Source: Klebsiella phage phi1_146029
Length of the DNA stretch: 64,000 bases
Sequence record: PP889479.1
Direction: 5' to 3' (one strand)
Shown here: positions 42,506 to 45,854 of the stretch, piece after piece
Numbering within the stretch: position 1 is the stretch's first letter
How the letters are laid out: each line of letters opens with the position of its first letter
Notes under the pieces: generated by a model
Database searches by the model: none
Told to the model about the DNA's origin: nothing
The model's input: the letters and a program-made list of their open reading frames with translations, nothing else
Program-made: the position numbers and the translations under genes

Positions 42506-43167
42506 TGTCTTATACGATCAAAGGTCTGTTGAAAAGACCTGTCCATTTGTTCCATAAACCGCCTGCCGTTGTCGGGGAATATCCGGCAAGAGGAGAGCTT
42601 TATTATGTCAAAGGCTCCAACGGTAGTGGCAAGTCTACCGTTCCGTCCTGGATGGCGGAGAATGATCCTCAGGCGTATGTCGTGACCCATAATGGTAAGG
42701 TGATGCTGACCGTTTGCCCATCATTTAATATCATCTGTGTCGGCAAATATGACAAATCTAAATCTAAAGGGGTTGACTCTCTAAAAGACACAGAGCAGAT
42801 GCTATTCGCCGTGTCTATCACCGAGCAACCTGAATACATCGGGTATGATGTGATCTTTGAAGGTATTATCCCTGCTACCTTGCTCAATACGTGGATTGAA
42901 CGTCTAAACCGCCCGACCCGCCGCCTTGTGGTTCTGTTCTTGGATACCCCCAAGGAAGTATGCCTGGCGCGTGTGAGTTCTCGCAATGGGGGTGAAGACT
43001 TCAAACACGAACTCGTCCTGGAGAAATGGAAGCGCGTCAACTCTCACCGAGAGCGGCATAAAGAGTTGTTCCCTAACATTCCTGCGGGTATGATGAAGTC
43101 TAATGGTCTGACCGTTGATCAGGCCGTATCTGCGTTTCTCAATCGTGATTTTGGGAGTATTGATTGA
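42506..43167 (+). CDS. AAA_33/Pnk-like P-loop kinase (candidate nucleotide or 5-hydroxymethyl-pyrimidine DNA kinase)
   Basis: Walker A VKGSNGSGKSTVPSW resembles T4 Pnk GCPGSGKSTWA. Stop overlaps the next start (ATGA). Confidence 0.55.
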
Positions 43168-44222
43168 TGGAAATTTTTGCTTTAAACAACAACGACATGC
43201 TGAAGAAAGCTGTCCTGGCTATCCGTGAACATGGGATTGAGTCTGATCCCGGTAATGCGGAGATTAATACTGATGGCACCCGGTTTCTTGATGGCGTGAC
43301 CATAACCGTCTCGGACATCCGTGACCGCTGGCTTTCCGTTGAAGGTCGCAATTCTTCTGCGCTGGCTGCTATTGGCGAGACCTTCTGGGTTCTGTCAGGC
43401 CGCAATGACATCCGTTTCCTTTCCCGAGTACTCCCCCGCGCGGCCAACTTCTCTGACGATGGCGTAACCTGGCGCGGCGCGTATGGCCCACGCCTGTACA
43501 ATCACGGGCAGCTGGATAGCGTTATCAACCGTCTGCGCAAGAATCCAAATACCCGCCAGGCTTATCTGACAATCTACGACCCGGCGCTGGACTCTGATGA
43601 AGGTTTGGCCGCTCATAATGAAACAGGCGAAGCCAAGACCAAGGACATGATCTGTAATTTGGCTCTTTTGTTCTCTATTACAAACGGCTGTCTGAACATG
43701 ACTGTCATCAACCGTAGCCAGGATGTTCTTTGGGGAATGTCTTCGATTAACTTCATTGAATTCTCTATTCTTCAAGAAGTGATCGCTAATGTTTTGGGCG
43801 TGAACGTCGGCCAGTACAAGTTGTTCTCCAACAATCTTCATTATTACAACAATGAAGTAAGCCAAAAACAGCTGAGTAAAATCACGGCGGATACCGTCGT
43901 GGTGGAAGAAGGAATGTTCAAAGACAAGATTATTTTCAATAATGAAATTGTTGAAGAGCAGAACGGAATCCTGTATATGTTCCGTGACGTGTTGGAAGCG
44001 TGTGAAAGCGGGTTATCCTGGCCTTCTGTATTGGGGATGTTGGAACGCTATGGCGCGGACAGAGGGTTGTTGATGCAAATGGCGTATTGTTTGTGGTGCC
44101 GTTTGAACGGTGTTCTTATCAACCATATGTATATTGCTGATGATGGGTTACTGAATGCTCTCCGCCATTCTCCTGTTGATCGCAAATATATGAATCCTCG
44201 TTCTTTGGGTGGTGACAAATGA
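43164..44222 (+). CDS. Thymidylate-synthase-family pyrimidine C5 transferase (dUMP/dCMP hydroxymethylase or TS) with a C-terminal extension of about 100 aa
   Basis: NPNTRQAYLTIYDP (TS NPNSRRIIVSAWNP), catalytic Cys in ICN, NRSQDVLWG (YQRSCDVFLG), SINF with Asn at the TS-N177 position, and LHYY (THLY). Confidence 0.75.
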   Translation: MMEIFALNNNDMLKKAVLAIREHGIESDPGNAEINTDGTRFLDGVTITVSDIRDRWLSVEGRNSSALAAIGETFWVLSGRNDIRFLSRVLPRAANFSDDGVTWRGAYGPRLYNHGQLDSVINRLRKNPNTRQAYLTIYDPALDSDEGLAAHNETGEAKTKDMICNLALLFSITNGCLNMTVINRSQDVLWGMSSINFIEFSILQEVIANVLGVNVGQYKLFSNNLHYYNNEVSQKQLSKITADTVVVEEGMFKDKIIFNNEIVEEQNGILYMFRDVLEACESGLSWPSVLGMLERYGADRGLLMQMAYCLWCRLNGVLINHMYIADDGLLNALRHSPVDRKYMNPRSLGGDK

Positions 44223-44785
44223 TGTATCCTAATCTGGAATTCTTCACGGGGCGCAAGCGCTCCGGTAAGGACTTCTGCCTGGAGTCCATTATTGAAGCAG
44301 ACCGGGGTATCCGTGTCGTTCATCGTCTTTCTTTCTCTGATGAGTTACGCCGGGTGGCCAATTACATTTACCCTTGGCTCCCGGTTGACGTAGACGATTC
44401 CATCAAGGATCTGCCGTTCTCACATCCGGATAACGTACATAACCTGTCGCCAAGGCAGATCTGGCTCCATCTGGGCAACGATAAGGGTGGTTTGCGCTAT
44501 GTACAACCCGATCTGTTCCTGGCGTTCTTTAAACGCTTCCAGTTGCCTCTCGTGGAGGCTAATCCTGGTGTGCACTATATTGTGAGCGACCTGCGTACTC
44601 CGCAGGAATATAATTGGGCACTGAGTACTAAATGTCCCATCACGCGCATTTCAAAGCCCAATCGTTCTGGTATAGTAGAGGATGACGTTGAGGCCTATAT
44701 CGACCAAATGGTTGTTGATTATGATTATGTCAACAACTTTGAAGGCCGTAACAATTTTGTTGAATTCTACAGGAACAGAAAATGA
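44219..44785 (+). CDS. 1: dNMP kinase, T4 gp1-like
   Basis: GRKRSGKD P-loop exactly as in T4 gp1 (GVKRSGKD). Confidence 0.7.
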   Translation: MMYPNLEFFTGRKRSGKDFCLESIIEADRGIRVVHRLSFSDELRRVANYIYPWLPVDVDDSIKDLPFSHPDNVHNLSPRQIWLHLGNDKGGLRYVQPDLFLAFFKRFQLPLVEANPGVHYIVSDLRTPQEYNWALSTKCPITRISKPNRSGIVEDDVEAYIDQMVVDYDYVNNFEGRNNFVEFYRNRK

Positions 44786-45336
44786 TAACAGCAGATCATA
44801 TTAAAAGTCTGCTCGAACTCCAAAAGGCCACTAACGTGGCCTACTTTGGGGAAGAGTGGAAAAACGTATGGAGCCAAAACGCAGTCGTCAATTCTATTTA
44901 TCGTGAATGGGCAGAATTCCTCGATGAAACGACTGCTGATTGGAAGGTTTACGGTAATGATATCGGGTTTCACCATACGAACGCAGTTTATGAACTGGTC
45001 GACGTGGTTCATTTCATGTTGTGCTTCGTTCTATTGGACCGCACCAAAGGCGAGATCGAAGAAGAATTTGAAATTCTTGATAGCCGCGAATTCACTCCAT
45101 TTGCTTTGGGTGCTGTTGGACATCGAGGTGTGACGTACCGCCTTGGGCAGTTCATGGATGACCCTTGTGTTGAGACTCTCATGTTTTTCCTGTCGTCTGC
45201 GTGTTCTTATATGGAGATCGACATTGAGACCTACATGCTGGCGCACAAACGCAAAAATGATCGTAATCGGCTGCGCGCTGCGGGCGGCGCTGACTACGAC
45301 AAGTCCACAGAAATCCCTCTGACCCTGGAGTTCTAA
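44782..45336 (+). CDS. All-alpha (MazG-like) dNTP pyrophosphatase, dCTPase/dUTPase-like (gp56 analogue)
   Basis: Helical acidic motifs (EW.EF..E ... ELVDVVHF) typical of the MazG / dimeric dUTPase superfamily. Confidence 0.5.
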   Translation: MITADHIKSLLELQKATNVAYFGEEWKNVWSQNAVVNSIYREWAEFLDETTADWKVYGNDIGFHHTNAVYELVDVVHFMLCFVLLDRTKGEIEEEFEILDSREFTPFALGAVGHRGVTYRLGQFMDDPCVETLMFFLSSACSYMEIDIETYMLAHKRKNDRNRLRAAGGADYDKSTEIPLTLEF

Positions 45337-45854
45337 TGTTTACGATTAACATCTCCATCTCGGCCGAGAATCTTCAGACCTCGGTCAGTAATTTCATTGA
45401 GCACATGAAACCCCTTGGGCATGTGGTGCTCAATTGTAAGTTAGACGTCGAAGGCGGGGTTGCGGAGATGTTATTTACAACACCCTCTCCAACTGACGCA
45501 TTCGTCTTGATTGAGCGCTGGGCATCGGAGGACATTCCTGTTCCAGCGCCGTTGCAGGATATCTATTTCAGTGAGACGATCTACTCACTCCATAGTATGC
45601 CCAAGGACGTAAGCCAGGCAGATATTGTTCGTCTGATTAATCATAACATGAACTTTGGGTGTATCGTTCGGCGTGATAACTATCGTTTACGCAATCATTT
45701 CCTGTATGATAACCAGAACCAATTGGATGAAGATTCATTATTATCCATCAAAACGATGCAGGAAGCGATTAATATTTTGTCTAAGAAGGTTCTGGGTGCA
45801 GAATTATTAACCACAATTAACAAACAAGAGGAAGTAAAATGGCCAGTTCATTAA
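45336..45854 (+). CDS. Hypothetical protein within the nucleotide-modification operon
   Basis: 172-aa ORF with 1-nt stop/start overlap on both sides. Confidence 0.5.
   Translation: MFTINISISAENLQTSVSNFIEHMKPLGHVVLNCKLDVEGGVAEMLFTTPSPTDAFVLIERWASEDIPVPAPLQDIYFSETIYSLHSMPKDVSQADIVRLINHNMNFGCIVRRDNYRLRNHFLYDNQNQLDEDSLLSIKTMQEAINILSKKVLGAELLTTINKQEEVKWPVH

Follow-up and report, generated by a model that had tools for sequence, protein, structure and literature searches.

The gene block running into uvsX in Klebsiella phage phi1_146029 is very probably a Taipeivirus copy of the ViI-type thymidine hypermodification module

In Klebsiella phage phi1_146029, a block of five overlapping open reading frames (ORFs) that includes a P-loop kinase and a thymidylate synthase (TS)-family enzyme runs directly into the recombinase gene uvsX, raising the question of whether the locus supplies ordinary nucleotides or initiates the replacement and modification of thymidine in the phage DNA. 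The locus lies in a 64,000-nucleotide (nt) stretch of sequence record PP889479.1 (the window, to which all coordinates refer), for which an original prediction, made from the letters alone, had proposed that thymidine hypermodification begins here in the manner of phages ViI, M6 and PhiW-14. The observation is confirmed and the interpretation is supported: the block is very probably the form taken in Taipeivirus by the ViI-type module for replacing and hypermodifying thymidine, with an orthologue of ViI gp67 next to a TS homologue of the hydroxymethylase type.

Six successive ORFs occupy positions 42505-46924 of the + strand, consisting of the five-ORF block (ORF1-ORF5; 42505-45854) and uvsX (45839-46924, +; PF00154 and PF21134), with a small ORF and then a gene 41-type helicase downstream. 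The overlapping arrangement stands as originally described, except that the block begins at 42505 and not at 42506; reading from 42506 meets 11 stop codons, and the 220-amino acid (aa) product begun at 42505 aligns with ViI gp67 over both ends. ViI, a Kuttervirus, carries Vi01_061c (gp67), thyA, dnk, dUTPase, Vi01_057c, uvsX, the small ORF and gene 41 arranged and oriented as in the window, with amino-acid identities of 79.5, 78, 74, 62, 43 and 69% for the first six genes, and Limestonevirus JA15 and Miltonvirus Kevin share the gene order of the block. The window differs from ViI in the genus and host (Klebsiella) of its phage and in two divergent parts, with ORF5 and the last 110 aa of the hydroxymethylase each only 43% identical to their ViI counterparts.

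The window belongs to a Klebsiella phage of the genus Taipeivirus (Ackermannviridae), the classification given in the record of its close relative vB_KpnM-Bestiario (Bestiario). Nucleotide identity over the block reaches 98.5% with Klebsiella phage cp18, 98.3% with Bestiario and 96.7% with 0507-KN2-1 (over 97% of the block), with Taipeivirus records that cover the whole block spanning 93.9-98.5%. Weaker matches to the block occur in 272 records of Salmonella, Klebsiella, Escherichia, Dickeya, Serratia and Shigella phages, from genera typical of the Ackermannviridae. Bestiario can be aligned to about 56 kb of the 64-kb window, for the most part at 95-98.5% identity, with one short stretch at 93% and a few insertions and deletions.

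The P-loop kinase that had been placed ahead of the TS-family gene is present (ORF1; 42505-43167, +; 220 aa), but its description as AAA_33-like rests on a sub-threshold match (22 bits; cut-off, 27 bits) and the specific family is HMUDK_HMUD1 (PF18748), matched over profile positions 1-196 of 196 (E-value (E) 8.1e-106; 352.3 bits; cut-off, 27). ORF1 is 79.5% identical to ViI gp67 over 220 of 220 aa, and its Walker A motif (GSNGSGKS, residues 37-44) is identical in gp67, for which kinase activity on DNA containing 5-hydroxymethyldeoxyuridine (5-hmdU) has been demonstrated biochemically (PMC8989533). The kinase proteins are 98-100% identical among Taipeivirus phages, and searches of solved structures by sequence with ORF1, ORF3 and ORF5 returned nothing meaningful. 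Based on the profile match and the orthology to gp67, ORF1 is assigned as a putative 5-hmdU DNA kinase (5-HMUDK).

Many GenBank and RefSeq records would suggest a different reading of the block, in which the block simply supplies dTTP for unmodified DNA, with a canonical TS in ORF2 and either a small terminase subunit or an ordinary thymidylate kinase in ORF1. Names given to ORF1 homologues include terminase small subunit, thymidylate kinase and baseplate hub, ORF2 homologues are called thymidylate synthase, and ORF1 matches phrog_800, which is labelled terminase small subunit and is the source of that mislabel. This reading is already contradicted by the results and is extremely unlikely. On ORF1 the dTMP kinase model TIGR00041 reaches 16.6 bits against a cut-off of 83, compared with 352 bits for PF18748, and the dTMP kinase and CMP kinase models all remain near 16 bits against cut-offs of 83-102. 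The real small terminase adjoins the large terminase elsewhere in both ViI and Bestiario, the ViI orthologue of ORF1 phosphorylates 5-hmdU DNA, and relatives of the phage exclude thymidine and carry 5-(2-aminoethoxy)methyldeoxyuridine (5-NeOmdU; see below).

The names in use for ORF1 homologues also include 'hypothetical protein', and RefSeq ViI gp67 itself is among the records affected. The 5-hmdU DNA kinase of these Klebsiella, Salmonella and E. coli phages is mislabelled in most public records, RefSeq and pharokka-style annotations included. These phages are widely isolated therapeutic candidates, and their DNA is expected to carry 5-NeOmdU, which matters for judging their restriction resistance, for sequencing artefacts and for their engineering. 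In Bestiario the kinase is annotated as a 259-aa protein from an upstream ATG (window position 42388), overlapping the preceding gene and crossing a terminator hairpin. In Salmonella phage CRW-SP2 (OR464140, Aglimvirinae; locus 1-7552), the genes run from the hydroxymethylase through the dNMP kinase, the dUTPase-like gene and ORF5 to uvsX, with a different protein upstream of the hydroxymethylase and no gp67-type kinase anywhere in the 7.5-kb locus, the rest of the genome not having been checked.

ORF2 (43167-44222, +; 351 aa) matches the TS family PF00303 (E 2.3e-15; 56.9 bits; cut-off, 24.3) and phrog_3676 (E 9.5e-178), and consists of a catalytic domain (residues 1-240) and an Ackermannviridae-specific C-terminal extension of about 110 aa. 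Cys163, Arg183-Ser184-x-Asp186 and His225-Tyr226 align with the catalytic and phosphate/pyrimidine-binding residues of TS, and the specificity position is Asn195, which aligns to the TS asparagine if a one-residue insertion is allowed. The asparagine is typical of uracil-specific TS enzymes and on its own fits the thymidylate synthase label, but all seven NCBIfam ThyA equivalog models score far below their cut-offs (the best at 58.6 bits against 327, the one nearest its own cut-off at 53.3 against 174.55). The closest solved structure is the CMP hydroxymethylase MilA (E 3e-18), compared with E 1.8e-08 for the best TS. Outside Ackermannviridae-type records, the best matches include M6-like Pseudomonas phages, Bordetella phages and Bacillus phages, and ORF2 is nearer to the hydroxymethylases of M6-like phages (AN14 and Ab19) and of Bacillus phages SBSphiC and CampHawk (E 1e-27 to 6e-36), the latter two of which we take to be SPO1-like phages with 5-hydroxymethyluracil (hmU) in their DNA, than to T4-like td (about 1e-07). 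The TS homologues of CBA120, ViI and AG3 had been grouped with hmU-type hydroxymethylases in earlier published work (PMC3184105). These affinities place ORF2 with the predicted dUMP hydroxymethylases and not with canonical ThyA.

A tblastn search of the window, Bestiario and ViI, in which the queries were E. coli FolA and the T4 proteins td, frd, gp42, beta-gt and gp40, gave nothing credible. The td and frd genes for which a search had been proposed were thus not found in these three sequences, nor were gp42 or beta-gt, and no dihydrofolate reductase was found there, an enzyme that would not be required if the hydroxymethylase product is 5-hydroxymethyl-dUMP (5-hmdUMP) plus tetrahydrofolate. 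In our judgement, ORF1 is no ordinary thymidylate kinase and ORF2 no canonical Td, and no standard gp42 with glucosyltransferases was found in the window, Bestiario or ViI.

The two genes that follow were originally described as a gp1-like deoxynucleoside monophosphate (dNMP) kinase and a gp56-like NTPase, and both share PHROGs with those T4 proteins. ORF3 (44219-44785, +; 188 aa) matches phrog_139 (E 2.9e-44), as does T4 gp1 (E 1.8e-65), and its N-terminal motif GRKRSGKD is the counterpart of GVKRSGKD in T4 gp1 (GxKRSGKD). Pairwise similarity to gp1 by BLAST is weak (E 0.005) and no Pfam or NCBIfam model matches ORF3 above its curated cut-off; the shared PHROG and motif, together with 74% identity to ViI dnk, identify it as a predicted dNMP kinase of the T4 gp1 type. 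ORF4 (44782-45336, +; 184 aa), an all-alpha NTP pyrophosphohydrolase of the dimeric dUTPase/MazG/T4 gp56 type, matches PF08761 (dUTPase_2; E 5e-07; 30.5 bits; cut-off, 22.9) and phrog_173 (E 8.9e-41), the PHROG that holds T4 gp56, and is 62% identical to the ViI dUTPase. Its closest solved match is the dimeric dUTPase of C. jejuni (1w2y; E 0.0026), in which the columns of E42, E45, E71 and D74 of ORF4, from an ExxE (42-45) and an ExxD (71-74) motif, are acidic and presumably hold the metal ligands. ORF4 is a candidate dUTPase and possibly a dTTPase. Kutter et al. (2011, PMC3184105) likewise proposed that the dUTPase is probably a dTTPase too, by analogy with T4 gp56. A dCMP deaminase on the opposite strand (60292-60804, -; PF00383, E 1e-16; 69% identical to the ViI dCMP deaminase) is, by analogy with the role described for this enzyme in hmU phages (PMC8989533), the likely supplier of dUMP for the hydroxymethylase. 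The predicted family assignments of the five ORFs, including that of ORF5 (below), are far beyond chance.

The position of the locus invites comparison with T4, in which, as the original prediction correctly stated, gene 42 (dCMP hydroxymethylase) and beta-gt precede uvsX. The T4 order on the minus strand is 42, beta-gt, segA, uvsX, 40, 41, so the TS-family gene of the window sits at the gene 42 position relative to uvsX and the gene 41 helicase, with gp1-like and gp56-like genes adjoining. A T4-like cytosine modification locus, encoding a gene 42-type dCMP hydroxymethylase and having lost or moved its glucosyltransferase, would account for this placement, yet its probability is close to nil. 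Asn195 stands where T4 gp42 and MilA have aspartate, pointing to uracil and not cytosine as the target, and pairwise similarity between ORF2 and gp42 is weak (E 3e-06). As had been noted, no glucosyltransferase lies in or near the block, and none was found by homology in the window, Bestiario or ViI; CBA120 has no 5-hydroxymethylcytosine substitution (PMC3184105). Further, genes 1 and 56 are far away in T4 but inside the block here, and T4 has no counterpart of the DNA-base kinase.

If the block begins a ViI-type pathway, the enzymes of its later steps should be encoded elsewhere in the genome. Homologues of ViI gp160, gp226, gp243 and gp247 are absent from the 64-kb window, while Bestiario, about 98% identical to the window over most of the window's length, encodes all four (71, 88, 72 and 85% identical to ViI, respectively), so that the distant partner genes of ViI are found also in the relative. 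Three of the Bestiario proteins match Pfam families above cut-off, namely HMUDK_hel (aGPT-Pplase1), HMUD2 (second kinase) and ADDT (amino acid:DNA transferase), and the gp226 homologue matches PALP below cut-off and keeps the lysine equivalent to K92 of ViI gp226. The aGPT-Pplase and pyridoxal phosphate (PLP) partners that the original prediction had suggested looking for are therefore both in Bestiario and not in the window.

With the late enzymes outside the window, a ViI-type pathway could end in another base, such as plain 5-hmdU, O-serinyl-thymidine or another amino-acid derivative. The transferase and decarboxylase of the relative are 85 and 88% identical to those of ViI, not 100%, the window has a divergent C-terminal allele of the hydroxymethylase, and related clusters in other phages yield different products. 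Such a variant is improbable, given that phiHS2 of the same genus carries 5-NeOmdU by tandem mass spectrometry, that the catalytic lysine of the decarboxylase is conserved, and that 0507-KN2-1, a typical Taipeivirus, has the C-terminal allele of the window at 100%. In phiHS2, 5-NeOmdU amounts to about 16% of dT by high-performance liquid chromatography-mass spectrometry and the DNA shows broad restriction resistance (2026 preprint, bioRxiv 10.64898/2026.05.19.726188).

Drawing on homology and on published work on relatives, a pathway ending in 5-NeOmdU can be proposed for the phage. Before replication, the phage dCMP deaminase would provide dUMP, which ORF2 would convert with methylene-tetrahydrofolate to 5-hmdUMP; ORF3 would phosphorylate this to the diphosphate and the host nucleoside diphosphate kinase would complete 5-hmdUTP, while ORF4 would hydrolyse competing dUTP and probably dTTP, so that the phage polymerase would make DNA containing 5-hmdU. 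After replication, ORF1 would phosphorylate the 5-hydroxymethyl group of 5-hmdU in DNA, and two enzymes encoded outside the window, counterparts of the serine:DNA transferase gp247 and the PLP decarboxylase gp226 of ViI, would turn part of the phosphorylated bases into 5-NeOmdU, with the remainder ending as thymine. The modified DNA would resist many restriction enzymes. The block thus appears to join a pre-replication supply module (ORF2-ORF4) to the first post-replication enzyme (ORF1).

Several points weigh against this assignment of the block to the ViI-type module. What has been established is homology and synteny; for this isolate, the enzyme activities and the final base are inferred, and the release of a hydroxymethyl and not a methyl product by ORF2 is a prediction from sequence. 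The transferase, decarboxylase and second kinase lie outside the window, and their presence in this genome is predicted from relatives. ORF4 may act on dUTP, dTTP or both, and either of two further MazG-like genes in the genome family could be the dTTPase. Lastly, a terminator-like hairpin lies directly upstream of the block, for which a promoter scan gave no promoter.

The chemistry invoked here is well documented in relatives. Phages of the hmU type swap dTTP for 5-hmdUTP by removing dTTP/dTMP and by means of three enzymes, namely dUMP hydroxymethylase, dNMP kinase and dCMP deaminase. In ViI, gp67 and gp243 phosphorylate 5-hmdU DNA, the phosphorylated base receives serine through gp247, and decarboxylation by gp226 then yields 5-NeOmdU, with residues that are not hypermodified ending as thymine (PMC8989533). 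The novelty implied by the original prediction does not hold. Kutter et al. read the locus likewise in 2011, noting that the adjoining dNMP kinase fits hmdUMP and that CBA120 takes up no 3H-thymidine into its DNA (PMC3184105); 0507-KN2-1 was listed among the Vi1-like phages encoding the kinase, in association with the hydroxymethylase (Lee et al. 2018, PMC5889632); the modification chemistry was solved in 2021 (PMC8989533); and a 2024 review described the modification genes as conserved across the family (PMC11721090). With the 2026 report on phiHS2, prior knowledge of the feature extends to this genus of Klebsiella phages, so the finding is correct but adds little new biology. It does show that a genuine pathway of DNA hypermodification can be recognised from raw sequence read with care.

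Among systems beyond the Ackermannviridae, Bacillus hmU phages (SPO1 group) share the dUMP hydroxymethylase, dNMP kinase, dCMP deaminase and dUTP/dTTP hydrolysis with the window phage, the hydroxymethylases of SBSphiC and CampHawk being 31-36% identical to ORF2. According to the literature, SPO1 differs in leaving 5-hmdU unmodified and in lacking the 5-hmdU DNA kinase and later enzymes. M6/PaMx11 (Pseudomonas) and PhiW-14 (Delftia) have a homologous kinase (about 31% identity), a hydroxymethylase (32-35%) and the common 5-phosphomethyl-dU intermediate, but, unlike the window phage, carry compact single clusters in siphoviruses that use glycine or putrescine, with radical S-adenosylmethionine or flavin-dependent (FAD) enzymes, and yield other final bases. 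Within the genus, the Taipeiviruses 0507-KN2-1, Menlow, Bestiario, cp18 and phiHS2 differ from the window in small insertions and deletions elsewhere and, in Menlow, in the C-terminal allele of the hydroxymethylase.

The junctions had been described as ATGA-type overlaps of 1-4 nt. Within the block the overlaps are indeed 1 or 4 nt, but only two read ATGA (ORF2/ORF3 at 44219 and ORF3/ORF4 at 44782, 4 nt each), the others, as read from the sequence, being TGATG (ORF1/ORF2 at 43167, 1 nt) and TAATG (ORF4/ORF5 at 45336, 1 nt), and ORF5 overlaps uvsX by 16 nt (45839-45854). The overlap of uvsX with the next ORF is 23 nt. A large share of same-strand neighbouring genes in Bestiario overlap by 1-30 nt, judged by eye from the annotation table. 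Since similar overlaps are common throughout this genome type, those of the block are not remarkable, and the idea that they mark something unusual was dropped.

The C-terminal segment of ORF2 (about 110 aa; window 43887-44219) is 43% identical to both ViI and Menlow, which are 73% identical to each other over the same segment, whereas the catalytic part (residues 1-240) is 92-98% identical to both. Across the phage collection the segment is bimodal, with 22 records at least 95% identical to the window, 249 below 60% and none between. Among the records listed, the window-type allele occurs in 0507-KN2-1 (100%), cp18 and May, as well as in Salmonella phage allotria; Menlow and many other Taipeiviruses have the other allele. 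This distribution makes the segment look like a cassette exchanged between genera. Allotria combines the window-type allele with a ViI-type ORF5.

ORF5 (45336-45854, +; 172 aa) belongs to PF24021, the phage ACT-like domain family, by profile match (E 3e-80) and by fold, an AlphaFold2 model (mean predicted local distance difference test score, 74.7) giving a confident beta-alpha-beta-beta-alpha-beta domain at residues 1-100 followed by low-confidence helices. It appears restricted to the Ackermannviridae, being present in 275 phage records from genera typical of that family, flanked by the dUTPase-like gene and uvsX in every examined annotated record that spans its neighbours. A profile search of 1.8 billion proteins recovered only 18 relatives (cluster representatives), which differ little in length and connect ORF5 to no other family. 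The protein is 35-43% identical across enterobacterial genera outside its tail (43% overall to ViI Vi01_057c), in contrast to its last 30 or so codons (window 45765-45854; AINILSKKVLG.ELL..IN.QEE.KWPVH), which are nearly invariant in Taipeivirus, Kuttervirus, Limestonevirus and CRW-SP2 and absent from Miltonvirus Kevin. Synonymous-site identity in the tail is 0.62 compared with about 0.4 elsewhere, a mildly informative test of protein against nucleotide constraint that suggests a mixture of the two, with conservation due in part to the overlap with the start and ribosome-binding site of uvsX. In Menlow, ORF5 ends four codons sooner, at an ATGA junction.

A part for ORF5 in the thymidine-replacement machinery, for example in regulation through the sensing of a small molecule or in shutting off the dTMP supply of the host, is a speculative suggestion and rather doubtful. 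The divergent C-terminal allele of the hydroxymethylase could be a docking module that matches ORF5; it is equally conceivable that ORF5 acts with uvsX or is a passenger unrelated to the pathway. Apart from ORF5 and the two-allele hydroxymethylase domain, the parts of the module have a known explanation.

Upstream of the block, a scan predicts a terminator-like GC-rich hairpin of 13 pairs followed by a T-run (42458-42496, +; GAAGGGGCTGC-TATAATA-GCAGCCTCTTT), which ends 9 nt before the kinase ATG and has a loop reading TATAATA. ViI, Dickeya phage JA15 and Serratia phage Kevin all have the hairpin, their base substitutions leaving the stem paired, and the depositors of Menlow annotated it as a terminator. 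A scan for sigma-70-like promoters found none between the hairpin and the kinase ATG and none for the block, with no enrichment over shuffled sequence.

Elsewhere in the window, no tRNA genes or Rfam families were found. Compared with Bestiario, the window is without an HNH endonuclease gene (about 10512-10524), a homing endonuclease gene (about 59050-59063) and about 2 kb of small ORFs (51056-52936), gaps that are ordinary mobile-element and accessory-gene variation among close relatives. Conversely, about 1.3 kb with three ORFs (61952-63240, -) is absent from Bestiario and includes a phosphoesterase (phrog_547, 61949-62542). It adjoins a 123-aa protein (61581-61952, -) with a HAD-like DFDGT motif and the PHROG label 'phosphoheptose isomerase'. 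The two genes lie about 0.8-1.1 kb from the dCMP deaminase gene, and either the phosphoesterase or the HAD-like protein could be a candidate nucleotidase acting on the dTMP pool.

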